NCBI GenBank assembly: GCA_003990765.1
Contig: RBNJ01000361.1
Location: forward strand, 1 to 32,245
Direction: 5' to 3'
Length of the DNA stretch: 32,245 nt
From: Jimgerdemannia flammicorona
Lineage: Eukaryota
Positions 2,913 through 30,404 of this stretch are shown here, piece by piece. Made by a program: the position numbers and the translations under genes. The notes under the pieces are model-generated. The model was given only the letters and a program-made list of their open reading frames with translations, made no database searches and had not been told where the DNA came from. Numbering within the stretch: the first letter of the stretch is position 1; the number at the start of each line of letters is the position of its first letter.

Positions 2913-2940
2913 GTTTTCAAGATACAGAAATCTAATATAC

Positions 2941-4294
2941 TGTGACATACCAAAAATATAGCACCTGAATTATACCTTAGCCAGATAATGTGAAAAATTA
3001 GTAACTTAGCCAGATGATATGAACATATAGCATAGTAACCAGACACAGCAACCATTGCTATGGAAAAGTATATAAATAGCCAGACTACTAGACAAGGTAT
3101 ATCTGTGCAGGACCTGCACACCTGTGCCAACCTGCACACTTGTGTTGGATCTGTACAACTTGCTATAAGTACCAAATCTACAGTTAGCCACATAGCAACC
3201 AGATAGTAACCAACTTGTATAAATTATCCCAGAGACAAGAGTAAATAAACCTCAGTCTGAAATACAAACCAAAGAAGCCTCTAAAGATTGAGCATTGGTC
3301 CCCTTTCTACTCTGGTTCACTTTCTGATATAAAGCTGATTTTGCTGTGAAGAACTTTGCCACCTTTGGAATTATTGGTAAGCTTGCCAGACTAAGCCTGA
3401 AGAATCTGAGTTTGCCACCCAAGTTCAAGGAAGAACTTTGCCACCATTTCTAAGTTATCTGCATTCTCAGAAAGCCTAAGAGAAAGCCGCCTTACTCAAG
3501 GCAGTTTCTAATGCAACTTTGCAGTAAATCTGTTCATGCAAATGAAGCCAGTCTTTGACGTAACTTTGCCAAGAGACCCTTTCTCAAAAAGCCACCAGTT
3601 GTTTATATTCCCAGTTGAAGCCGCTGATTCAGGAAGAATCCATGACATCTGAGTTATCCATGTTATCTGAGTTATTATTCCCAGAAGAACCTGATTTGGA
3701 AGAACTCATGCCATCTGAGTTATATCCCAGTTGAAGCTGCTGATTCAGGAAGAATCCATGACATCTGTTATTCATTGTTCTCAGTAAACCCAAGAAGAAT
3801 CTGACACCAGTATAATTCCCAGTAAAAAGGACTCTGCCAAATTACCAGACTGCTCTGAATAAGAAACTTGTCCCACTACACAAGACCATTACCCAGAAAT
3901 TACATAAGGAACCCACCGCACTACACAGAGATCATCATGTAGAAATCACATAAGGAGAACTGCTAAATTGCCAGACCATCATGCATAAGGAGATCGTCAT
4001 GCTACACAGAAATCACCCACTACTCAAGAAGGAAACTGTTTGCACTACATATGAAATTCCACCAATTCCCAGTTGACCCATGAAGGAAACCTATTCACAA
4101 ATCGCTGCTACACCCAGAGAACCATCCCAATTAGGAAATTGATATACAAATTGCTCACAGATATCCAGATTGACTATTATACCACTAAACACTAAAAATA
4201 TTTTATTGCTTTTAATAAAGTAACTGGGGGCTCAAGCCAAACTACACCAACCCCCAACCTTGTAATTTGCCTCCATTGAGTCAGGCACATTATA
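2941..4294 (+). repeat. 5' LTR (1354 bp)
   Basis: Direct repeat of 11793-13193. Starts TGTGACATAC and ends CAGGCACATTATA (decayed CACGTTACA), followed by the PBS. Confidence 0.95.
3069..3078 (+). promoter_or_regulatory. Putative LTR TATA box
   Basis: TATATAAATA ~130 bp into the LTR. A TATAAATA core is present at the equivalent position in all four LTR copies. Confidence 0.5.
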
Positions 4295-4296
4295 TT

Positions 4297-4314
4297 TGTG
4301 GGCTCAACTGGGAA
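4297..4314 (+). other. Primer-binding site, tRNA-Pro-like
   Basis: TGTGGGCTCAACTGGGAA, 2 nt after the LTR, matches the tRNA-Pro PBS TGGGGGCTCGTCCGGGAT at 13/18 positions. Two of the mismatches are CpG-type transitions. Confidence 0.6.
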
Positions 4315-4850
4315 GATTTCAAAATTGACATAACTTTTCAGCTCACAAGAACCCACAGTCAAACTGGATATATTTAATACAACACCAATCTCTATCACTA
4401 CAGAAGAACCAGTTACATATTACCAGTATCTGGACAGGAAGAGAAGTAATTACCTCAAGACTTATCAATTATCCAGCATCAGAAGGATCTCAACCAGAAC
4501 CAGAAGCCAGTACAGCCCAAAATCTCCAACCAGATCAACCAGACAATACAGGTGGCCCTGTTGAAGATTTTGAAGAACTTACACAAGAAGATCTTATTAC
4601 ACAAGCCCAAGATCTTACAGCCAGACACTCCATACTAGTCCCATCAATCTCACCAATAGAACCTTTATCACAAGCCCTTGAAGAATTGGAAGTAGCTCCT
4701 ACAAGAATACCTACACTCATTTCACTTCATCCAAGGTCCAGAACACCATCCTCAGGATACCCAAGTACCCCCATCTCCAGTGACAGCTCAGAAAGCAAAT
4801 CAGAATCAGAATCTAGACCAGAACCAGAATTAGAAGAAAGTGATGATGAA

Positions 4851-5774
4851 ATGGCCACCTCCTTGCCAACCTTTACAAGATATCCAGAGGAAGACCCCAG
4901 AGAATTCCTTGATGGAATTGAAGGAATTGCAGCCCTGAGGAACCTTTCAGATGAAAGAAAAATTGCCATCTACAAGGCCCAGCTCAGAGAACCAGCCAGA
5001 GGAATTTTCCACTGAACAGCAAATGACCCAAATTCAGAACTGGCAAGACAGATATAAGCAGCACTATCTTATGAGCTAGAATATGTGGCCATGGTCCACT
5101 GGCTCATTGAAAAGTATACAGGAAACAAAACCCACCACAAGGCACAAGAATCTATTATGAGGATGAAGATGAATCTTGGAGAATCACTCAGAGCCTTCTT
5201 CACAAGAATCCAGAAGAGAATGTATGCTGTCAGGTTCAATGCTACCAACCAGGACATCATAGGTCCAATGACCTTCATGAATGGAATTTCTCCAAACATT
5301 GCTCAGCATATCCACACCCTAGACATCAGAAGGTCTGAAGAGCAAGTAGATGCAGCCCAAGGATTCTTTGATGTCAAACAAGAAACTACCTAGAGTGATT
5401 ATGACAAAAAAGAAGATAAAGAAGACATCCTGGTCAAAGCCCTACAAGGACTCCTTCAAAGACAGAAAAGATCTGAAGAAAGAAGACCAGCCAAAGAAGG
5501 AAAGAAGAATAGAAGTGAAATCCAAGACCTTAGTTCCAAGTTGGACTAATTGGTTGGACAGATTGAAAAACTCACCATACATGAAAATCAGAGCTACCAA
5601 GACAACAGAGAATACCTACAGCAGAGGAGCCGAGGTTATCCACTAAGAGATAACAGGAATTACCAGCAAGAAGAAAGAAGATACTCTGTCCAAGACAGAG
5701 CCCAAGTCCAATGCTTCCACTATGGACAATTCAGACACTATGCCACTGAATGTGACAACAAGAGAAGTGACTGA
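4851..5774 (+). pseudogene. gag: gag (degenerate); the frame is also open ~170 codons upstream of the ATG
   Basis: MATSLPTFTRYPEEDPREFLDGIEG capsid N-terminal pattern, Q/GESLRAF MHR-like segment, and a decayed CCHC knuckle CFHYGQFRHYATEC. In-frame stops. Confidence 0.85.
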
Positions 5775-6349
5775 AGGAACTCAGAATCATCAAACTGAAG
5801 GAATGACACTCAGTACAAAAAGACTGAAGCTCATCCTGTTGAAGATTTTGAGGAAGTAAGCAACAGTGAAGACTACAGTAACCTAGACTTATACCTAACC
5901 AAGATTACTACTCAGAAAACAGTCTATTCAGCAGAGAAAAGGAAGTGACCTATAGGAAGACCATCCAGAAATATCAGCAGAAGAATCATCCAAGAGGAAG
6001 ATAAAGAACATAAAGAGGAACAAGTAGAAACACCTTCCTAAACTCCTTTACCTTTTGTCTCCAAGACAAATGAGCTACCATCAGAGGATGAAGAAATGGA
6101 ATAAGAAGAATGGGAACCTGCTGCTTCAAAGCCCAAGAAGAAGTACACCCCAAAGACCATGCCTAGAGACATCTACAATGAAGCCTGGCAGAAGATTCAA
6201 GAGGTCAAGATGGAAGTCCCTCTCCTGCAGTTCCTGTAACTGACACCAGCTGGAGTTCAAAAAAAATTGCTGAGAACCACCAGGTCTAGCACTGGCCAAG
6301 TTCTAATACCACAGCAAGAACTAGTTCCCATCCCTGTCCAAGCAGCTGA

Positions 6350-6730
6350 AAGATATGTCAGCACCTACCTATATGGAGATATTGGAGGACAAAAGGCGAA
6401 AATCCTCATAGACACAGGAGCAGCTGTCTGTATCATTGCTAAACAGTTCCTGGACACCCTCCAATGGCCCATTGATGGACCATCCAACCTCAGCATCATA
6501 GTAGCAGATGGAGTCTGAACTCAACCCCTTTGAGAAGTATGAAATATCACCATCTCCCTTGGACACATTCAGTTCTCCATCCTGAAAGCTGTTGTCACTG
6601 AAGCTATCACCTATAACATAATTCTTGGCACCAACTGGATGAAGGAAATGAATGCAGTTGTTGATATTGGTCAATAGGTACTCAAGTTTGACTACTGAGG
6701 CAAGAAGTATAGAGTTAAGATGACCAGCTA
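6350..6730 (+). pseudogene. pol: Retropepsin aspartic protease (pol, degenerate)
   Basis: ILIDTGAAVCII active site (D at 6410) and downstream YNIILGTNWM; several TGA/TAG stops. Confidence 0.9.
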
Positions 6731-8030
6731 TGAGCAATCGAAGAAGAAGAAGGTCACTATTTAGGAGGAATATACCAGTAGTGTAGAATCTACCACAGAA
6801 GAAGAGGAAGAATCTGAAGATGGAAATGATCCCAGACTCAATCCCTAAATTAATCTGGTGGATGACAGACCAGAAGACAATGTGTGGGCCAAGAACACCA
6901 TCCCTATCACCATTGGAGCCATTGTAGGAGAAATCAAAAGATGTCCTATCTGCCTCAAGAGATACAAGTGTCCCAAGCATTCCTTCAAGATCATTTGGAA
7001 AAGGAATTCGCCTGGTACAGCCTGCCCTGAGTGCTGAAATAAGAAGAAAAAATGCAGACATGCTCCAGAAACATCTGCAGCTGAAGCTGCAGAAGTGCAA
7101 GCAATTTGGGGACAAGAATCATCTGAGGGAGAAGAAGTTTCTGACCAAGAAGTCCCTGACCAAGAAGTACCTGAAGAGGAAGAAGTCCCCAAACTCATCC
7201 CCTGGGATGACCCTCACTGGACACTATTTGAAGATACATAATGACCCTTGGAATATGGAAGAAGGACCCAGCACAATTACCATTATTCCCAAGAAAGAAA
7301 CTCACTAAGAAAAGACCTTTTGGCTAGGAAGATGTCCACACCAAATGGTCTTCCACTCTTCCTGAGACTACTGCTATCAGTGTTATCTACTAGACCAACA
7401 GGAGAGACAGAGACCCCAGAGACCAGAACCTCTGAACACAGTTGCACAGTCAACTACCTTCCAAGAAGTTACTACTAAGTTGCAAAGCCAATTCAGAGGA
7501 CAAGACCTCTTCACCTGGACAGAAGTATATCCCTTATCTACTCTTTCACCAACTTATGACCAAGATGGGTACCAATTCCTGAGATAATAAGAGATCAATA
7601 ACCAGGAACATCATTTCCAAGCAATGGGATATTGCAACCATAGAAGACACCCAGATTGCCAAGACTGCAGGCATCAGAAGATCCATCTCAGTCATGATGT
7701 TACAATCCCACTTTGAAGAGAGGAGATAACTGAAGCCAGATCCAAAAAAACCAGACCAAAAAGCCAGGAAGAAGAACCCTCAAGATCTAAGATTTAGAAG
7801 AAGACTTCCTAGCTCTCATCAGATATACAATCTGCCAGAAATGAGTGAAAGATGCCACCAACTTCATGAAAGCCCTAGACCCTACAGGAAGAAGAAGAAT
7901 CAACTATCTCCAAGACCCCTCTACTGGAGCCAGGTGGCCACACCTCAACCTCAGAGTCTAGAGGCTCTCTGCCAGTAGAGCCTCAGCCCAAGGACAGGCT
8001 GAACTTAGCAAGGATGTTACCCAGTATGCC

Positions 8031-8426
8031 ATGCTACATCCAAAGGCCAAACTCCCAACCAAAGCACACCCAGAGGATGTAGGATATGATCTTTACAGTC
8101 TGGAGAATGAATCCATTAAGCCTGGAAAAACATTCATGATCAGAACAGGACTAGCCATACAACTACCCCAAGGAGCTTACATCCAATTGACCTCAAGGTC
8201 TGGACTTACCAGACGAGGAATAACCATGGAAGGAGGAATCATTGACCCAGGATATATAGGTGACATCAAGGTCATTCTACACAACAGTAGTACAGAATGG
8301 CACTGAATCATCAGAGGACAGAAGATTGCTCAAGCAGTCTTCATGAAGGTCAAGACCCCACAATTACAAGAAGTCTCCAAACTAACTGAAGGAACAAGAC
8401 AAGCCAAAGGATTTGGGAGCTCAGAC
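8031..8426 (+). pseudogene. dut: dUTPase domain within the retrotransposon pol
   Basis: All five motifs in one frame: VGYDL, SRSG, GGIIDPGYIG, KIAQ, RQAKGFGSS. One internal TGA (8304-8306). Confidence 0.93.
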
Positions 8427-8859
8427 AAGAAGGAAGTACATCAACTTCAAGTCAACCACCTCAGGAGGAATGTTCCCCAGCAAGTGTACCACCAACCAGA
8501 CAAACTGCACAAGAATCTCATTCTGGAGCCTGGAGAACAAACTATCTTCGAAATCTTTGCACTACCCAACCCCAGGAATCTTTTCTTCAAACCCAATGAA
8601 GATATCCCACACTTGGATATAGAAGGACACATATTCCCTGACAAGATGAACCTGGTGCACTCCCAAGCAACCAACCAAAGTTGGGAAACCATCATCTTGC
8701 CAAAAGGAACCATCATAGGATACCTGGTGCCTTTTCTCAACCAAACTCATAGGGAAGTTTATGAACTAAACCTATCAGGAAATGGCAAAAGGTCCCAGAA
8801 GAAAGAAAAGGCCCCTCTGCGACCCAGGAGACAGTGAAGCCTTCCACCAACATTGGAGA

Positions 8860-10185
8860 AGAATTGACACCCCAGCAGTAGCAACAACTAGTAGAACTTC
8901 TCAACAACTATCAAGATATCTTCACCACTGATTATGGCAATCTGCCATATAACCCATCATATCACTATAGCATAAATACAGGAAATGCAACACCCATCCA
9001 GCAGAAACCTTATAGAATACCCCATCACTTAAAAACATTCGAAAAGGAGCACATTCAAGAACTCTTAGACAATGAAGTCATCCGACCTTCAACCAGCCCC
9101 TGGGCCAGCCCTATACTTATTGTACCAAAGAAAGGAGGATGGAGACTCTGTGTAGATTACAGGAAACTCAATTCAGTCACAGAAAAAGATGCCTATCCTT
9201 TGCCCAGAATTGATGACCTTTTTGATCAGTTACAGGATGCCAGATACTTTAGCAGTATGTATCTTTTCACAGGATTCTATGAGATCCCCATAGACCCCAA
9301 AGACATTCAAAAGACAGCCTTCCTTGCTTTAGGAAAACTGTTTGAATACCTCTGAATGCCTTTTGGACTTTGCAATGCACCCCCCACCTTTCAGAGGATG
9401 ATGAATTCAGTCTATGCCCTCTTGATCCACTACTGCCTGATTGTATTCATGGACAATTCCAACATCTATTCAGTAAATTTCGAAGAACACCTGCACTACC
9501 TAGAAGAATTCTTCAAGCTCACCTGCAAGAACCACTTGAGACTGAATACAAGAAATGCTACTTTAGGAAACAGAAATTCAAATTCCTTGGATTCATGATT
9601 TCGAAAGAAGGAACCCATGCAGATCTAAAGAAAACCAAGAAGATCAATAATTGGCCAGTACCCAAGACCCTGAAGGAAACACTATCATTCCTGATGCTAG
9701 TATCCTACTATAGAAGATTTATCAAGAACTTTGCCCAAATTGCTGCCCCAATCCAGATCCTTCTCAAAAAAGGAGTATCATTCAAATAGACAGAATCACA
9801 AGAAACAGCCTTCAAAGAACTCAAGAACTATATGACTACAGTACCAATCCTTGTGCACCCCAATCTACAGAAGCCATTCATCTTGTATACAGATGCTTCC
9901 AAAGATGGCCTAGGAGTGGTTCTAGCCCAAGAAGGACCTGACCAACAACACTATGTAATAGCTTATATAAGCTGAGCTACCAATCAGCAGCAGATGAACT
10001 ATGGTAGCACCAAACTGGAATGCCTTGCAGTCATATGGGTGGTCACCCTGTTCAAGCATTACCTCATCAGAAAAAGGTTCACTCTGATCACAGATCATGC
10101 AGCCCTCAAATGGCTATTCAACTACAAAGAACCCACTGGAATCCTAGCCTGCTAGATCCTTATCCTTCAGGATTACAATATCTCA
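8860..10185 (+). pseudogene. pol: Reverse transcriptase and RNase H (degenerate)
   Basis: SPWASPILIVPKK, RLCVDYRKLN, YPLPRIDDL, MPFGLCNAPPTFQR, FMDN (decayed catalytic FMDD), LYTDAS, LECLAVIW, TDHAALKWL. Stops and frameshifts present. Confidence 0.95.
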
Positions 10186-10334
10186 CAACAATGTTGATAT
10201 ACTTTCCTGCCAACCCCAATGAACCAGAAAAAGAGTGTCCTGAGGAACTACACTCTAAAGGAAGCTCCTCAGACCATCAAGGTACAAGAAGCAGGGACAG
10301 GTAAATATAGAAGAGAAGCTGTAAACAATACTCC

Positions 10335-11253
10335 AACATTGGCCCAACCTCAGAACACAAGTCCAGGACATACTCAAGAAATGTGACACCTGCCAGAAGT
10401 ACCAAGAAAGAAAGAACTACTAAGCACCACTTCAACCAATCACACCACTAGACAACATCTTCAGAGATGGGGAGTAGATATAATTGGACCCCTACCAGTT
10501 ATGCCAAGAAGAAACAAATATATTCTTGTATTTGTAGAACATCTGACAAAGTGGCCTGAGGCTTTTCTAATGGATATTGCAGATGTCTTAACCATTGTGG
10601 GTCTTCTCTATAGACTCACACTCAGATATAGACCCCTGGAAGAACTTATCTCTGACCGAGACACAGAATTTATCAACAACATAATCACAAGTTATGCCCA
10701 AATTCACAATATCCACCTCAAATAGACCACATCATACCACTCTCAGATCAATGGCATGACAGAAAGAATGAACTAGACTATCAAGAAAGAACTTACCTAA
10801 GTCAATCCTACCAACTGGGACCTCTGCTTATCTGAGATCCTATGGGAAATTTGAAATACCCCTACTGCCTCCACCAAACAAAAGCCATTCGAAATGATGT
10901 TTGCTAAGAAAACCAGATAAGAATCTCAGAGATCTCCTCAAGAAGACAGAACAGTTACATAATCAGGCCCAAGTTCAGATTACCAAAGCCCAAGAAAGAC
11001 AAAAGAAGTACTATGATCAGAAACAGAAGAACCAGAAGATCAAGATTGGAGATAAAGTACTGGTTTGGAGGAGCATGATTGAAATGAATTTTGCCACCAA
11101 ATTGGAGTTCAAATGGGAAGGACCTATCTTGTGCACAATATCAGAGGAATCAGCATCTATTTAAGAAGCATGGATAGATGAACCCTGAAGGCACCAGTAT
11201 ACATCAATCACCTCAAGATATACCTTTCCCCACATCATGAATCAGAGAGTTGA
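10335..11253 (+). pseudogene. pol: Integrase (degenerate; the HH part of the zinc finger appears deleted; GPY/F motif; no chromodomain)
   Basis: WPNLRTQVQDILKKCDTC, WGVDIIGPLP, VEHLTKWPEAF, LISDRDTEF, NGMTERMN, KIGDKVLV, KWEGPY. Confidence 0.92.
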
Positions 11254-11752
11254 TAACCACCTTCAGACTCTTGTCCTCAGCTCATTTCAATCACTGCCAG
11301 TTCCTCTACCCCAATTCCAGGAAGTCAATGGAAACACTCTCCAGAAGATCCAGATTCATCAAGAGAATCTTGTCCTGACCAGACAATTGCTACAGGTCCA
11401 CCAACTTTAGGCTCATTATGCAATTGGAGAACAATTGCAGAACCTCCCAGTCCCTGAACAGATATACATCAGAAACACTACAGGACTATCAAGAAGAGAT
11501 GTCACTGCTACAGACAGACTTTACACCCTTTATAAATGAAACCCTACAGCCCTGTTACAAGTACAATTCTCCTGATATGATGCATGAGGAATGAACCTAG
11601 CCACCTACCTGAGCATCATCAATGCTGTCGAAATTCTATTCCCAGAAGAAGAAGAAGAACCCTTGGAATGGAGCAACTATGATACAGATGATGAAGATGA
11701 TGGAACAGATATTGATGCAGAAGATGCTTACCCACACTGAGATGATGACTAA
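11237..11752 (+). pseudogene. Extra ORF3 (~171 aa, unknown function, acidic C-terminus) between integrase and PPT
   Basis: The ATG overlaps the integrase end by 17 nt. A single frame runs to TAA 11750-11752 with five internal stops (4 TGA, 1 TAG) and no frameshift: MNQRVDNHLQTLVL...AHYAIGEQL...TGLSRRDVTATDRLYTLYK...FPEEEEEPLEWSNYDTDDEDD. Confidence 0.6.
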
Positions 11753-11779
11753 AGGACAGTCTGAGGACAGACCATCCTT

Positions 11780-11792
11780 TAGTAGGGGCTGA
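11780..11792 (+). other. Polypurine tract
   Basis: TAGTAGGGGCTGA immediately before the TG of the 3' LTR. Confidence 0.65.
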
Positions 11793-13193
11793 TGTGATAT
11801 ACCAAAAATGTATTACCCGAATTATACCTTAGCCAGATGATGTGAACAATTAGTAACTTAGCCAGATGATGTGAACAATTAGTAATTTAGCCAGATGATG
11901 TGAACATACAGCATAGTAATCAGACACAGTAACCATTGCTGTAGAAAAGTGTATAAATAGCCAGACTACCAGACAAGGTATATCTGTACAGGACCTGCAC
12001 ACCTGTGCTGGACCTGCACACTTGTGCTAGACCTGCACAACTTGCCATAAGTAGCAAATCTATAGTTAGCCACATAGCAACCAGATAGTAATCAACTTGA
12101 TTAAATTACTTCAGAGATAAGAGTGAATAAACCTCAGTCCAAAATACAAACCAAAGAAGTCTCTAAAGATTGAGTATGTATTGGTCCCCTTTCCACTCTG
12201 GTCTACTTTCTGATATAAAGCTGATTTTGCTGCCAAGTTCAAGTAATGAACTTCACCCCCTTTGGAATTATTGGTATGCTTGCCAGACTAAGCCTGAAGA
12301 ATCCGAGTTTGTCACCCAAGTTCAAGGAAGAACTTTACTGCCATTTCTAAGTTATCTGCATTCCCAGAAAGCCTAAGAGAAAGCTGCCTTACTCAAGCCA
12401 GTTTCTGATGCAACTTCATAGTGAATTCATTCATACAAATGAAGCCAGTCTTTGATGTAACTTTGCCAAGAGACCCTTTTCCAAAAAGCCGCCAGTTGTT
12501 CATATTCCCAGTTGAAGCTGCTGATTCAGGAAGAATCCGCAACATCTGAGTTATCCATGCTATCTGAGTTATTATTCCCAGAAGAACCCGATTCAGAAGT
12601 ACTCACACCATCTGAATTATTTCCCAGTTGAAGCCACCAATTCAGGAGGAATCCATGATATCTGAGTTATTCGTTGTTCTCAGTGAACCCAAGAAGAATC
12701 TGCCGCCAGTATAATTCCCAGTAAGAAGGATTCCACCAAATTACCAGACCACTCTGCATAAGGAACTCATCCCACTATACAAGACCGTTACCCAGAAATC
12801 CCATAAGGAATCCACTGTGCTACACAGAGATCGTCATGCAGAAATCACATAAGGAGAACCGCTAAATTGCCAGACTGTCACACACAAGGAGATTGTCGCA
12901 CTACACAGAAATCACCTGCTACTCAAGAAGGAAACTGCTCATGCTACACACGAAATTCCACCAATTTCCAGTTGACCCAAGAAGGAAACCCATTCACAAA
13001 TTGCCACTACACCCAGAGAACCATCCCAATTAGGAAATTGACATACAAATCACTTGTAGATATCCAGATTGACTATTATACCACTAAACACCAAGAATAT
13101 TTTGTTGCTTTTAACAAAGTAACTGGGGGCTCAAGTTAAATTACACCAACCCCCAATCTTGTAATTTGCCTCCATTGAGTCAGGCATGTTACA
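11793..13193 (+). repeat. 3' LTR (1401 bp)
   Basis: TGTGATATAC...CAGGCATGTTACA. It has one more 29-bp U3 repeat than the 5' LTR and is followed by TSD ATAC. Confidence 0.95.
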
Positions 13194-13240
13194 ATACTTA
13201 TATAGTTGTATATCTACTACATCATAAAATTAAATCCATG

Positions 13241-13525
13241 ATCTGTATCTGGGTATTCTATTCCTGCTATATCTGGCCATATCTGTATCTGGGTGTTCTG
13301 TTCCTGCTGTATCTGGCTATATCTGTATCTGGGTGTTCTGTTCCTACTGTATCTAACTGTATCTATATCTGTATGTTCCGTTCCTGCTGTATCTGGCCAT
13401 ATCTGTATCTGGGTGTTCTGTTCTTGCTGAATCTGACTGTATCTGTATCTGGGTGTTCTGTTTCTGCTACATATATCTGACTGTATCCATACTGCATGTT
13501 CTGTTCCTGCTATGTCTGGCATCTG
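13241..13525. repeat. 40-bp minisatellite, ~7 units
   Basis: Consensus ATCTGTATCTGGGTGTTCTGTTCCTGCTGTATCTGGCCAT in register from 13241. Confidence 0.9.
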
Positions 13526-13732
13526 GCAACTATAATTTGTATATGGCATCTGGTATCACAAAATTGATATTTAATCTCCTATGTATCTCCATCTCCAACA
13601 TCTTCATCTCCAGATATGGCTTCAACTTATATACATATATATTTATTATCACCATATCCATTATCTCCTCTGGTTCCCTGTTGCCTTTCCTGCCATTGAT
13701 ATGCCTATCTATTAATATACCCATGTCTCTGT

Positions 13733-13980
13733 TTCAATCATATCATCCATATCATCCATCTCAATCATTTGTATTATCTGTCTCGATCATATTGCCTCAA
13801 TTGTCCATCTCAATCATTTGTATCATCTATCTCAATCATATCACCCATCATCCATCTCAATTATATTGTCCATCATCTATCTCAATCATATTATCTGTCT
13901 CAATCATTTGTATCATCTGGTTAATCTCAATTGTATCACTTCAATCATTTATATCATCTGTGGTATTGTCCATCTCAACC
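13733..13980. repeat. Degenerate ~21-bp tandem repeat (ATCTCAATCATwTk core)
   Basis: About ten recurrences of TCTCAATCAT/TCAATTAT with a 21-29 bp spacing. Confidence 0.7.
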
Positions 13981-18585: not shown

Positions 18586-20052
18586 CTAACTCATCCCAAT
18601 CCTCCTCCAGCACATCCTACAATTTAGCATCTCCTCTAGCCCCCCCTAGTACCCCATACTGAGGGCACTCCTTCTCTGCCATCTCTGCATCATCTATAAT
18701 GACACTCAGCTCTGTGCCTTCCCCCCCCTCCTGGGGTCCCTTCTGGTACTACTTCCTTCTCTCCTGCCCAGGCACTCACTCTCAATCTAGCTTCTTCAGT
18801 AGTGGTCTCTCCAGCTGCCCCACCCCCTAACTTAGCCAACAGATTCTTCTGAATGTGCCTCCCCTGCACTCTCTCCTAGGCTGCCTGATCCATCACACCT
18901 TCTTACTATTTACAATCTCTACAACCATCTTGGCCTCAAACTCCTTCCAGGCCAATCTCCTCCTCTCTATAGCTTTAGCTAGATCCTCTAATACCTTTAG
19001 CAAGTCCTCTTCTTCCTCCAGTATCCCTTTCACTCTTGAGACCTTGCACTCCACAGGTCCTCATTTGAGAACTACCAGCCAGTCCCTCACCTTCTCTATA
19101 TTCTCCTTGTCTATCAGCCACACCCTGATGTCCATATCTCCTGTCCTTAATTCTGTACCTTCTCAGATCCAAAACCCAATATCTATAATATTTCTATACT
19201 CCTTAATGACCTCTACAATCAACCCTCTGGCCATTTCCTTCAACACTATAGGAATATCCAGTACTGTCAGTTATACTACTCAGAGATCTCAGTATAAGCA
19301 CTGGATCATAGAGATCACTACCCCCCCTCTCTTCTTTATTGCTTTCAACAGTATATCCTCCTTCTCAAAGCCTATGTATCTCCACCCCTTCCAGACCCTT
19401 CAAAAACTTCACTAATGCTGCTCTCTTCACCTTCTGGATCAGAAGCCCTAGAATTATCCTTACCATTACTGCCAAGCCTTAGAAATATAATATGATAGTG
19501 AATTCTGACCTTAATTTCTTAAGTAATAGTGCTGTCACCAGGTCTGTTACACTATCTGTTAGATCTCTAGGCCTCATTCCCACCCCCTGTCCAGATCCAC
19601 CATCAACCATTACATTTGGATTTTTTTCCAGATTAGCAGTTTTCTTACTATTAGCAGTCCTGCTCCCCCAAGCCACTACTCCCCCAGCCCTGCTACTCTC
19701 ACCACTATGGGCCACTCTACTAGACCCTGCAGCCCTTGCCATCTCCTTGCCCTTCCTCAGTCTAGTCATCAGACAACCTCCCTTCACCTTGTCTGTGAAG
19801 CTTATCCTTTCAGTTCTCTATCCTCCAGCACTGCCTCCTCCTCTTCTATATCCTCCAGCCAGCAAGTTCCACTTGCTTCTCTCCAAGCCATGACTCCTCC
19901 CCATATACTGCCAGTCAAACACACTAAGGCTGCTCTGCCCAGTATATATCTCAGAATACTCATTAGTTGCTATATTACTAGTGCCTATTCTCCAAAAATG
20001 ATATCTTGAGTATTGCTAAAAGTTTATAACCTGAATATTACTAGAGAAAGGT
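18586..20052 (-). mobile_element. L1/Tx1-like LINE copy 2: 5' UTR plus most of ORF1, 3'-truncated and decayed
   Basis: Colinear with ORF1 at 28482-29900 (KNPNVMVDGGSGQGVGMRPRDL..LLLKKLRSEF vs KNPDVTAVGNSGLGVGTRPGDL..LLLKKSRSEF). 5' motif at ~20024-20050; the ATG has decayed to ATA at 19973. Confidence 0.9.
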
Positions 20053-25332: not shown

Positions 25333-26546
25333 TGTAACATACCCAGCTCAATGGAGGCAAATTATAAGGTTGGGGGTTGATGTAGTTTGGCTTGAGCCCC
25401 CAGTTACTTTGTCAAAAGCAACAAAATGTTCTTGGTGTTTAGTGGTATAATAGTCAATCCAGATACAACAGTAGTTCCTCTGGTCACATGCGGTTGATTT
25501 GTGTATCAGTTTCCTTATTGGGACGGTTCTCTGGGTGTAGCAGTGATTGTATGTCTTTCCTTGGTTGACGGATAATTTCTATGTAGCGCGGTGATCTCCT
25601 TATGCGTGACGGTCTGGCAATTTAGCGGTGACGATCTTGTGTAGCGTGACGATTTCTAAAAGTATGTGATTTCTGGGTGATGGTCTTGTACAGCGGATTT
25701 CCTTATGCAATTTGACAGACAACTCGATTTGGGTGCGGATTCACTGGGAATAGAGGATGATGCAGATTCTTCTGAATCGGCTCACTGGGAATTATACTGG
25801 CAGCGGATTCTTCTGGGACCAGGCTCACTGGGAACAGATAAATAACTCGGATGTCATGGAATAATAACTGGTGAGTGATTCTTGGCAAGTTACATCAAAG
25901 ACTGGCTTCGTTTACATGGGGCTACATCATAGACTGACTTCACTGCGAAGTTGCGTCAAGAGACTGGCTTGTGGCAAGGTTCCTTAAGGCGGGCTCTCTG
26001 GGAATGTGGGTAACTTCTTCAGGCTTATCTGGCAAGCGAACCAAAACATAGCGGTTTATTCCTTAAGTAGTGGATTACTCAAAAGGCAGCAAAGTTCTTC
26101 CTTGAACTTTTGGTGGCAAATCTTCATGCTTATCTGGCAAGCGAACCAAGGCTTGGTATCAGAAAGTGGACTGGAGTGGAAAAAGGGGACCAATGCTCAC
26201 AATCTCCTAACAGTGGCTGTAGAGTTCCTCTCAAAGTATGGTAGGCAGACTTGTCTTTTGCTTTTGGATTCAATTTCAGACTGAGGTTTATTTACTCTTA
26301 TCTCTGGGGTATTTTATACAGTTGTGATTGCTATCTGGTTACTACATTGCTAATTATAGATTGCTATCTATGGCAAGTATGCTGGTTCAGCACAGGTGTG
26401 CTGGTTCAGCACAAGTATACTTTATCTGGTAGTCTGGCTATTTATATAGTTTTCTGCAGCAATGGTTGGTGTATCTGATTACTATGCTATATGTTCATGG
26501 CATCTGACTAAGTTATAATTCAAGTGGTATGTTTTGATTTATCACA
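25333..26546 (-). mobile_element. Solo LTR 1 of the dUTPase-gypsy family
   Basis: Reverse-complement homolog of the LTRs (TGTAACAT...ATCACA) with TSD ATAG on both sides (25329-25332, 26547-26550). Confidence 0.93.
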
Positions 26547-26582: not shown

Positions 26583-27979
26583 TGTAATGTGCCTGGCTCA
26601 ATGGAGGCAAATTACAAGGTTGGGGGTTGATGTAGTTTGGCTTGAGCCCCCAGTTACTTTGTCAAAAAGCAACAAAATGTTCTAAGATTCCTGAAGTCCT
26701 AGGTGTTTAGTGGTATAATAGTCAAGATCTGGATACTGTGCGAGTGGTTTCCTTTTTGGGACAGGTTCTTGGATGTAGCAGCGATTTGTGTGTGTGTGTG
26801 AACGGGTTGCCTTCTTGGGTCAACTGGGAATGCCACAATTTCGTGTAGCAAGGCAATCTCCAAAGTATGCGATTTCTGGCATAACGGTCTTGGTGCGACA
26901 ATCTCTGTGTAGCGTGACGATCTCCTTGTGCGTGATGGTCTGGTAATTTAGCAGTTCTTCTTATGTGATTTATGCATGACGATCTTGTGTAGCGCAAGTG
27001 GATTCCTTATGTAGTCATTCTGATAATTTGGCGGATAACTCGATTTGGCTCACTGGAGATGGTATGGCATGGATTCTTCTTCCGGAAATAATAACTCGGA
27101 TGGCGCGGATAATTCGAATAACTGGGAATAATGCTGGTGGTGGATTCTCTGTACCGGGCTCACTGGGAACAACGAATAACTCGGATGGTGCGGATTCAAC
27201 TTTAACTGGGAATACTACTTGGAGGGCATGAGTTCTTCCGAATCGGACTCTTCTGGGAATATGGATAACTTGAAAATGGCGGATGATGCGGATTCTTCCC
27301 GAATCGGCAGGCTTCTGGGAAATAACTCGGATAGCGCGGATTCTTTCTGAATCGGCGGGCTCTTCTGGGAATACAATGGTGCGGATTCTTCTGAATCGGC
27401 GGCTTGGCTGGGAAAGGGTCTCTTGGCAAAGTTACGTTAAAGACTGGCTTCATTTGCGCAAACGGATTCACTGCGAAGTTGCGTCAGAAACTGGCTTGAG
27501 CAAGGCGGCTTTCTTTTAGGCTTTCTAACTTGGAAATGGCGGCAAAGTTCTTCCTTGAACTTGGCGGCAAACTTCAGGCTTATCTGGCAAGTGAACCAAT
27601 CAATCTTTGTATCGGAAAGTGGACCAGAGTGGGGAAAAGGGACCAATGCTCAATCTTTAAAGGCTTCTTTGGTTTGCTTCAACTTTTCGGACTGAGGTTT
27701 ATTCACTCTTGTCTCTGGGGTATTTTATACATTGTGGTTGCTATCTGGTTGCTATCTGGCTAACTATAGATTTGCTATCTATGGTGTATTTGGGTGGATG
27801 GTCACTGTCTGGCAGACAGCCACTGTCCAGGGGACAGCCACTGTTCACATTATTCCCTTCTTTGGCTATCTGGTTATTTATACATTTTTCCGCAGCAATG
27901 GTTGCTGGTTACTATGCTATGCTAATGTTCACATCACCTGGTTAGGTTTCGAGATTGCTACGTTTTGTGGTTTGTTACA
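26583..27979 (-). mobile_element. Solo LTR 2 of the dUTPase-gypsy family (CpG-rich, least decayed copy)
   Basis: TGTAATGT...TGTTACA with TSD CTAT on both sides (26579-26582, 27980-27983). Confidence 0.93.
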
Positions 27980-28481: not shown

Positions 28482-30404
28482 ATGGATGGCAACGATCGAA
28501 CTGGTGAGTGTACTGGTCAGGGGGGTGCTGGTGCCTTTGGCTGGCAGTAGGTGGGGAGGAGGGGAGATGGTTTGGGGATGCCAGGGGCCTCGATGGTTGG
28601 CCGAGATCCTGGTGGTGGAGGGAGGGGCAGGCTGAGGCAATGAGGTGGGGAGAGGTCAACCTTCGCTGACAAGGTCAGAATGGAGAAGATGGCCTCTGGC
28701 CTTGATGATTGGCTTGGCCTGGGGAAGGCATCGACGGCGGCTGCTGAGGGACAGAGAGGTATACTCAGGGGAGTCTCAGGTGGCAGGGTAGGAGTGGGAG
28801 TAGGGGCTGGAGATGGTGCTGTGACTGCTGATGGGGCTGTGACTGGGGATCTGGCAAAAAATCCAGATGTGACGGCAGTTGGCAATTCGGGACTAGGAGT
28901 GGGCACAAGGCCTGGGGACCTGGCAGATGGCATGATAGGCATGGTGTTGGCCCTATTACTCAAGAAGTCGAGGTCGGAATTTGCAGTCACTATGTGTTTC
29001 AAGGGCTTGGTGGTGATGGCGAGGATGATTTTGGGGCTGGTGGCACAGGAGGCTAAGGGAGTAGTGTTGGTGAAGTTTTCGTGGAGAAAGGAGGGGGTTG
29101 AGGTGGGGTTTGAGGAGAAAGATGCCTTGTTGGCAGCCATGGAGAAGGGGGTGACAGTTGGCAGGGTTGTGGTCCCTATGGCCTGGTGCATATGCTGGGA
29201 CCCCCGGGTGGTGCAGTTGACAGTGTTGGATCTCCCAACCATGTCGAAGGAGAGGACCAGGGAGCTGGTTGTAGAGGCGATCAAGGAGTATGGAGAGATT
29301 GTGGACATTGGGTTCAAGGTCTGGGAGGGCACAGAGCTTAGGACTGGCGACGTCGATGTCAGAGTGAGGCTGGCTGGGAAGGAGAATATGGGGAAGTTGA
29401 GGGACTGGCCAGCAATGCTGAGGTGGGGACCAGTGGATTATAAGGTCACGAGGGTGAAGGGGACCCAGGAGGAGGAGGAGGACCTGTTGGAGGCGCTGGA
29501 GGATCTGGAAGGGGCAGTTGCAAGGAGGAGATTGGCTTGGAAGGAGTTTGAGGCCAGGACGGTGGTAGGAGAGGTGGATGGGAAGAGGGTCCGGATGGAG
29601 AAGGGGGCTTGGGAGAAGATGCAGGGGAGGAAAATCCAGAAGGAGCTGCTGGCAAGGTTGGGTGGGGGTAGGGCTGGTGGAAGCTCAGGGGAGGGAGTTG
29701 CAGGGTTGCAGGAGAGCGCCTGGGCTGAGGGAGGAGAAATGGCCCAGGGTGGGGCTCAGATTGGAGTGGGGGAAGAGAAGGAAGGTGAGTTGGAGGCAGA
29801 TGCCGAAATGGGTGAGGGTATGTACCCTCAGGATAGTGTCCCAGGTGGGGCTGAGGGGAAGGAGGAGCTGCTGGATGTGCCGGATGAGGAGTGGGATGAG
29901 TCAGTGAGGAGGAGCATGCTGATGGACCCCGAGGTGGATGGGGGACGAATTGCTCAGGGTGTGGCAGAGGCAGTGGATGAGGAGAAGTGGATGTGGAAGA
30001 CCCTGGAAGGGGTAGCGGCTGAAGAGCTGGAGGGTGAGGATTTCCGGGTGATGGAAGAGAGGCATTGGGAGGAGATCCTACGGGGGGAGGAGGTGTCAAG
30101 AAAGATGAGGAATGAGATCCTGACTGTCCTTCTGGAGTCAGTTGAATATCAAGTGGATGATCAGCGGGAGGAGGAACTTCAGAAGATTGTGAGTGACAGG
30201 GCACTTTTCTTGTGGAACTCGAGGAAGGGACTGGAGAAGTGGTGTGCAGTCTGCTTGGACTACTGGTCAGATATGGAGGCCGTGGATGGGGTGGAATGTC
30301 AGGAAATCTTGGAGGCACTAGATGCTCAGGCCAATGTGGAGGGTGACTTGGAAGCTGAACAGTGCTTGGATCTGGCTGGGGATGAGATGAGCATGGAATA
30401 CTAG
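28482..30404 (+). pseudogene. LINE ORF1 (RRM-like middle, long acidic tail), two early premature stops
   Basis: ATG 28482 is in frame with the 574-aa ORF (28680-30404); stops TAG ~28548 and TGA ~28641. LTVLDLP..AIKEYGEIVDI..TGDVDVRV is typical of L1-clade ORF1. Confidence 0.82.

Follow-up and report, generated by a model that had tools for sequence, protein, structure and literature searches.

The Bel1/Tas gene of foamy viruses lies near the 3′ long terminal repeat (LTR). Its product, a trans-activator that the virus itself encodes, attaches directly to the viral LTR and carries an acidic activation domain at its C terminus (PMC517496). VANC, encoded by the VANDAL transposons of Arabidopsis, is also a sequence-specific protein of a mobile element; its targets form tandem repeats, and these differ from one related element to another (PMC5735166). 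We analyzed a stretch of 32,245 nucleotides from Jimgerdemannia flammicorona (contig RBNJ01000361.1, assembly GCA_003990765.1; hereafter "the window") that contains a decayed Ty3/gypsy LTR retrotransposon with an additional open reading frame (ORF), ORF3, between its integrase and its polypurine tract (PPT). We found that each ORF3 type in this genome is paired with its own palindromic array beside the LTR TATA boxes, which is new. As judged from these sequences, the evidence tilts modestly toward ORF3 being the element's own sequence-specific transcription regulator, which would bind the element's own LTR, most likely as an activator.

ORF3 appears to share the C-terminal acidic domain of Tas in composition. 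Tas differs in that it belongs to an animal retrovirus, has a target of ~27 bp and is expressed from an internal promoter (PMC517496), and the accessible part of that paper describes neither stop-start coupling nor an allelic cassette series. No Bel1/Tas family is among the Pfam matches of ORF3 up to E 10 or E 1. VANC differs in that it is a protein of a plant DNA transposon, contains DUF1985/DUF287 and removes methylation, and the motifs quoted for it are non-palindromic 9-mers (PMC5735166). Neither DUF1985 nor DUF287 matched in the Pfam scans of ORF3, whose arrays co-vary with the protein type and would be its target. By analogy, ORF3 would work like Tas and VANC, without homology to either.

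LTR retrotransposons commonly carry extra ORFs, most of them unassigned. A review calls their roles unclear, and also covers plant elements with an additional sense-strand ORF located between pol and the 3′ LTR (PMC7264820). Fungal Gypsy elements include an "add. ORF with unknown function" and the dUTPase-bearing PosPlaTy3 (PMC2864245), and ORF3s are known in bdelloids (PMC5408684). The new ORF3 resembles such ORFs in its position and its presence in most copies, and some fungal Gypsy elements similarly have a dUTPase between protease and reverse transcriptase (RT). In the portions of these sources that were available, however, the additional ORFs are env-like, enzymatic or unassigned, and none of them comes with a cognate array in the LTR. 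The C. elegans element Cer1 encodes CERV, likewise an accessory regulatory protein of an LTR retrotransposon, but CERV is the product of a spliced mRNA and acts in RNA export (PMC10309623). An LTR element with a matched array was not found in the accessible text of PMC3248453, PMC13547354 or bioRxiv 10.64898/2026.08.24.746577, nor was any LTR retrotransposon with a matched protein-array system among the open-access papers that our literature searches listed.

ORF3 is a selected protein-coding gene

A preliminary description of the window, made from its letters, had proposed a single frame with five stops that fills the gap between integrase and PPT and whose ATG overlaps the integrase end. This is borne out. 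The frame runs from ATG to TAA over 171 codons, with internal stops at codons 58, 101, 113, 117 and 168. The integrase stop (11251-11253) lies 14 nt past the ORF3 ATG, and ORF3 ends 29 nt before the PPT. The stop density, which had been likened to that of pol, is of the same order, but at the high end (2.9 per 100 codons, versus 0.3-2.6 in six gag/pol segments).

We compared the window copy with its 29 closest fetched relatives (n = 30). ORF3 is free of frameshifts in 26 of these copies, and no internal stop in its frame is common to more than 20; in the other five frames, by contrast, 3-8 stops per frame are common to at least 27. Of at least 1671 candidates in the genome, the 150 that best match a database homolog include 47 without an internal stop, a count made by hand on a list biased toward high scores. 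Open homologs of 169-183 aa, down to ~50% identity, occur in public metagenomes.

Using three sequence types of 36, 26 and 18 copies, we obtained a net ratio of nonsynonymous to synonymous divergence (dN/dS) of 0.22 in each comparison of types A, B and C (95% confidence interval 0.15-0.32). The ratio is 0.21-0.28 with transversions only, which avoids the effect of CpG decay, and the three control frames tested gave 0.76-2.2. Intact frames and a dN/dS below 1, the checks suggested beforehand, are thus both present, and the frameshifts or neutral evolution in other copies that would have spoken against a gene are not what we found. A neutral filler or shadow frame is rejected by the frame-specific stop pattern and dN/dS, and ORF3 is a selected protein-coding gene.

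One locus (L221) has two divergently oriented ORF3 homologs of different types, at 2030-2521 (−) and 2925-3420 (+), with no PPT or LTR beside them. Both match without internal stops, their downstream flank is single-locus, and they keep more CpG than the elements do (observed/expected 0.36 and 0.23). These homologs might be copies that were captured or domesticated, or they might give rise to hairpin RNA.

ORF3 types and their palindromic arrays

At least six ORF3 types occur in the genome: A, B, C, D, R and the rare E (3 copies). Their sequences differ much more in ORF3 than in the adjoining integrase. Third-position divergence between B and C, for example, is 0.43 in ORF3 and 0.11 in the integrase, where divergence within types is 0.09-0.12. 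The largest integrase cluster comprises 29 A, 20 B, 12 C and 11 R copies. Clusters of the unique 3′ region of the LTR (U3) are common to A, B and C, and to D and R, while the arrays stay matched. On this pattern, ORF3 is a cassette swapped onto a shared pol.

The arrays usually consist of 2-6 tandem units of 18-19 bp just 3′ of the LTR TATA box, and each type has its own unit: GTGCAG-N3-CTGCAC (A), GTACAG-N3-CTGTAC (B), GTGTCC-N3-GGACAC (C), TGACAG-N3-CTGTCA (D) and GGACAG-N3-CTGTCC (R). The three E copies have a 16-bp palindromic unit, TACCT-N3-AGGTA. Inverted pairs of 5 bp number 35, 217, 137, 132 and 130, where shuffled sequences average 5-8 (a 5- to 44-fold excess), and a random unit would be palindromic 3.5% of the time. 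Both junctions of a tandem unit are palindromic, and the spacer bases vary freely within arrays.

Two TATA boxes flank the array. TATA box 2 is present in 117 of 126 copies and, in 115 of these 117, precedes AATAAA by 26 nt, which places the array upstream of a core promoter. TATA box 1, ~25-30 nt before the array, anchored the array search, so its counts are circular and were not used. On this layout, the array could serve as an upstream activating element within U3. If TATA box 1 were the working box, the array could instead be read as RNA, with stem-loops of the 5′ transcript bound by ORF3, in a Tat-like or Rev/CERV-like manner, for elongation, export or packaging. The distance of TATA box 1 from the array would suit this, the 6-3-6 palindromes can form hairpins, and CERV is an LTR retrotransposon protein required for the export of genomic RNA (PMC10309623). 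Against this stand the conserved downstream TATA box 2 and the freely varying spacer bases, and palindromes at both unit junctions are what evenly spaced DNA half-sites would give. We consider an RNA target quite improbable.

The match between ORF3 and array was measured on 198 loci, which reduced to 158 unique ones, of which 156 were typed by residues 77-96; concordance was scored by three nearest neighbours. Array type equals ORF3 helix type in 138 of 140 copies, the two misses being an A copy called B and a D copy with a truncated array. The short spacer before the array is concordant in 136/140 copies. Between helix and array, concordance is 144/154 for residues 100-135, 123/138 for the tail and PPT, and 111/129 and 117/129 for U3. 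It is 109/143 for the integrase on one side, and on the other 96/127 in DNA 3′ of the array and 63/126 after AATAAA.

The clearest comparison is that of types D and R (28 and 34 copies). There are 22 near-fixed sites in codons 1-90 and 21 in the array, and no difference at ≥0.6 over nt 270-629 (360 nt, which include the rest of ORF3, the PPT and most of U3). The ORF3 island ends at codons 81-82, at the start of the predicted recognition helix. At these codons Leu occurs in 30/30 D and 0/37 R copies, and R has Arg or residues that can be reached from Arg by transitions. The D and R half-sites have T and G, respectively, as their outer base. Arg reading G and Leu reading T fits general protein-DNA chemistry, which was applied to D and R post hoc. 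Two multi-site tail haplotypes occur both in D (11 and 13 copies) and in R (7 and 19, with 4 mixed), and 6 D copies have an R-type spacer, so the middle DNA has been exchanged more than once. Nonetheless, 27/28 D and 29/31 R arrays have their own half-site; the other 3 are unscorable, and no scorable array has the half-site of the other type. The type match therefore exceeds simple linkage and is strong, though indirect, evidence that ORF3 has a cognate target in the LTR.

Several points limit this interpretation. Only about five independent type changes are represented, typing was done after inspection, and copies were sampled from the top matches. The A and B half-sites are one transition apart and blur in decayed copies, such that a direct count gives 22 of 34 A arrays as A. 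Types C and R have a common 5-bp core despite different helices. Moreover, the whole N-terminal half is type-specific, and the helix is singled out by the D/R boundary alone.

Some of these points would also suit ORF3 and array being functionally unrelated. ORF3 could then be a host-defence antagonist or a cofactor of the particle or of integration, the arrays could bind host factors or serve RNA dimerization, and the match would reflect linkage plus a few founder recombinants. The distance is short, independent type changes are few, the spacer is type-specific along with the N-terminal half, and the helix-turn-helix (HTH) is a prediction. On the other hand, the two separated islands of fixed D/R differences flank a shared, four-gamete middle, and U3 clusters are common to several types while the arrays stay matched. 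We regard an unrelated pairing of this kind as unlikely, although it is the most probable of the alternatives that we weighed.

On a finer scale, the five type-A copies that have Asn instead of Asp at residue 88 (L003, L007, L013, L020 and L022) all have a GTAC left half-site in several units. This is a possible co-change; both changes are transitions.

The protein, its translation and the surrounding element

AlphaFold2 models of natural homologs of ORF3 are all-helical with an HTH-like helix pair. The HTH-like character anticipated in the preliminary description would correspond to this predicted pair; no fold match was significant. According to our residue table, residues 85-90 vary with ORF3 type. 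The very acidic tail noted earlier is also real: the last 36 residues include 15-19 D/E, no K/R and 3-5 aromatic residues. This tail is conserved and is a candidate activation domain by its composition. In homodimer prediction, a control scored higher than ORF3.

The tail bears on two other ways in which ORF3 might use the array. The preliminary description had named a trans-activator or a silencing antagonist; the acidic-aromatic tail fits the former. As a VANC-like antagonist, ORF3 would bind the array but keep methylation or heterochromatin off matching LTRs. The CpG observed/expected ratio of 0.04 points to heavy methylation of the elements, VANC, too, has tandem-repeat targets that differ among related elements (PMC5735166), and the covariation of type and array applies equally. 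However, arrays were seen at the promoter (element bodies were not scanned), while VANC motifs also occur in introns and upstream regions (PMC5735166), the Pfam scans revealed no VANC-associated domain, and the acidic-aromatic tail fits direct activation. Anti-silencing stays a minor rival, second among the alternatives and rather unlikely. ORF3 could also be a repressor or copy-number limiter that occludes matching promoters. The covariation again applies equally, and initiation could be blocked by a protein bound to the array, which begins immediately 3′ of TATA box 1. This we find very improbable, given the conserved acidic, aromatic tail; in addition, self-repression would select less strongly against mismatched recombinants, yet there are none among the scorable D and R arrays.

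ORF3 is not envelope-like, in line with the preliminary description. The highest 19-residue Kyte-Doolittle mean is 0.94-1.46 in 6/6 proteins tested, so none has a transmembrane stretch, and all six have 0-1 Cys; the predicted model is all-helical and soluble. An env assignment was rejected: position and sense strand fit, but there is neither a transmembrane anchor nor a cysteine-rich ectodomain.

A likeness to DUF1016/YhcG had also been suggested. The AHYAIGEQL motif and the 15-residue spacer on which it was based are present, and ORF3 shares with DUF1016_N/YhcG (PF17761) and DUF3102 (PF11300) a helix that ends in aromatic-x-I-G, followed by a G-x-S-x-R helix start. Nevertheless, the likeness is unsupported: an hhalign comparison of ORF3 with DUF1016_N, both of whose profiles are shallow, gave a probability of 2.9%, and 9/100 and 12/100 shuffles scored as high. 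Both memberships were rejected, as the Pfam scores of PF17761 and PF11300 are below cut-off and no sequence, profile or structure score is significant. ORF3 ends at 169-172 aa in its acidic tail, with no C-terminal PD-(D/E)XK nuclease domain. DUF3102 models are among the weak Foldseek rows (E 0.34-1.7, TM 0.31-0.36); the fold searches gave nothing significant, which does not show that the fold is new.

No homologs were found outside the family. A search of 1.84 billion representatives gave 6 matches, of which 5 belong to the family and 1 is of low complexity (E 2e-4), and all 16 matches of a profile search are within the ORF3 family. PHROGs, PDB sequence, phage and plasmid searches yielded chance-level rows only, the ESM Atlas unnamed or unrelated clusters only (TM ≤0.52), and none of the 554 pattern matches from a scan of metagenome loci was confirmed. 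Longer or fused forms were absent among 8000 candidates, which is weak evidence. ORF3 belongs to none of env, DUF1016, DUF3102, Tas and VANC.

The integrase C-terminal motif was located in 96 of 100 copies examined for the ORF3 junction. Relative to the ORF3 ATG, the integrase stop occupies +1 (an ATGA overlap) in 47 copies and +14 in 49, and the integrase is never in frame with ORF3 (0/96), so an in-frame fusion was rejected. Base 4 of ORF3 is A in 100/100 copies, though residue 2 varies between Asn, Ser and Thr. A similar junction precedes the integrase. Of 71 such junctions examined, 61 were located, and in at least 35 of these the RNase H stop falls on the opening ATGA, with the ATG at −1 of the stop; the remaining junctions include earlier decay stops. 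In types A and C, the integrase and ORF3 cistrons share their first few codons. In the window, the integrase starts at the ATGA overlap (10219-10222), and this copy has a 26-nt deletion just upstream.

Stop/start overlaps in the fungal viruses HvV190S and CHV1 and in the retrotransposon SART1 reflect termination-reinitiation and are likewise of AUGA type or have stop and start within 20 nt (PMC10275272). By contrast, the overlap occurs twice in one LTR element here, and is known from sequence. Both ORF3 and the preceding integrase would thus be translated from genomic RNA by termination-reinitiation. A conserved splice acceptor 5′ of the ORF3 ATG was rejected, as the nearest AG is absent in type B (by eye).

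The element (Table 1) has the Ty3/gypsy features of a protease-RT-RNase H-integrase order between LTRs, a PPT and a target duplication (ATAC, 4 bp, at 2937-2940 and 13194-13197). Its integrase would not be released from a single Pol polyprotein, since in related copies the RNase H frame stops on the integrase ATG. By Pfam, the domain order is protease, dUTPase, RT, RNase H, integrase, and pol part 1 is interrupted by stops and frameshifts. The LTRs are 88.8% identical, and transitions make up 136 of the 152 differences. The 231-Mb assembly that contains the element has 88 Zn2Cys6 matches and a class-1 chitin synthase, as expected of a fungal host.

Table 1. Features of the retrotransposon in the window
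Feature	Position	Strand	Basis or remark
Ty3/gypsy LTR retrotransposon, decayed, dUTPase-bearing	2941-13193	+	between outer LTR ends
5′ LTR	2941..4294	+	
TATA box 1, 5′ LTR	3071-3078		before array
Type-A array, 5′ LTR	3103..3157	+	~3 units of 19 bp, between the TATA boxes
TATA box 2, 5′ LTR	3218-3224		after array
AATAAA, 5′ LTR	3244-3249		
Probable primer-binding site	4295..4312	+	from sequence; presumably tRNA-Pro-like
gag-like region with decayed CCHC-type knuckle	4329..5960	+	by eye; no Pfam match
pol part 1: aspartyl protease, dUTPase (~8043-8423), RT, RNase H	5961..10222	+	Pfam PF13975, PF00692, PF00078, PF17919
Integrase, separate cistron	10219..11253	+	Pfam PF00665; no chromodomain seen
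ORF3, 171 codons	11237..11752	+	ATG to TAA
Predicted long helix (aa 34-69) and HTH-like pair (aa 72-82, 86-99)	11336..11533	+	AlphaFold2 on natural homologs
Low-confidence acidic tail	11642..11749	+	AlphaFold2 and composition
PPT	11781..11792	+	
3′ LTR	11793..13193	+	
TATA box 1, 3′ LTR	11952-11959		before array
Type-A array, 3′ LTR	11984..12039	+	~3 units of 19 bp
TATA box 2, 3′ LTR, decayed	~12098-12107		after array
AATAAA, 3′ LTR	12126-12131		after array

Several further features were seen in the window. About 1.2 kb between protease and dUTPase (~6700-7960) have acidic stretches and a cysteine-rich segment, with no Pfam match in the frames tested. The ~1-kb LTR part 3′ of AATAAA (~12150-13193 and 3270-4294) exists in many variants, including 11 mixed clusters, that assort independently of ORF3 type. 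A 29-bp unit occurs three times in the U3 of the 3′ LTR (11822-11908) and is not triplicated in the 5′ LTR of the same copy; other ORF3 types have shorter duplications of this motif. Two adjoining LTRs of the same family, without an internal region, lie at 26584-27944 (−) and 25334-26520 (−), one with an R-type array and the other with an A-like array variant. Tandem repeats directly follow the 3′ LTR (13201-13520 and 13728-13942, 40-bp and 9-bp-based). Finally, a GC-rich open frame of 586 codons at 28644-30404 (+), with no Pfam match and an inverted relative near 18897-19323, is possibly ORF1 of a non-LTR element.

Proposed function

As a regulator of its own LTR, ORF3 would form an HTH from helices 72-82 and 86-99, and the first residues of the recognition helix would read a half-site of 5-6 bp. 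A dimer or short filament would bind the inverted half-sites, which are ~9 bp apart, several per LTR, and the acidic-aromatic tail would recruit the host transcription machinery to the following TATA box. Positive feedback would be limited to copies with a matching array, giving each subfamily a private loop. Protein and array would thereby act as a lock-and-key cassette that is shuffled onto the shared pol.

The broader proposal is that a lineage of fungal LTR retrotransposons has a DNA-binding activator of its own, without named relatives, that diversifies as allelic protein-operator pairs. The first recognition-helix residue and the palindromic half-site would change together, resulting in co-resident subfamilies with mutually orthogonal feedback loops and a shared pol. 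We give this proposal an even chance.

A candidate target, and the residues that probably read it, can be taken from the sequences of the copies. If the proposal is true, a fungal Gypsy element has reached the regulatory logic of complex retroviruses independently, and the coexistence of many subfamilies in one heavily methylated genome would be explained. The genome would also offer at least six natural protein-operator pairs, of ~170 residues each.
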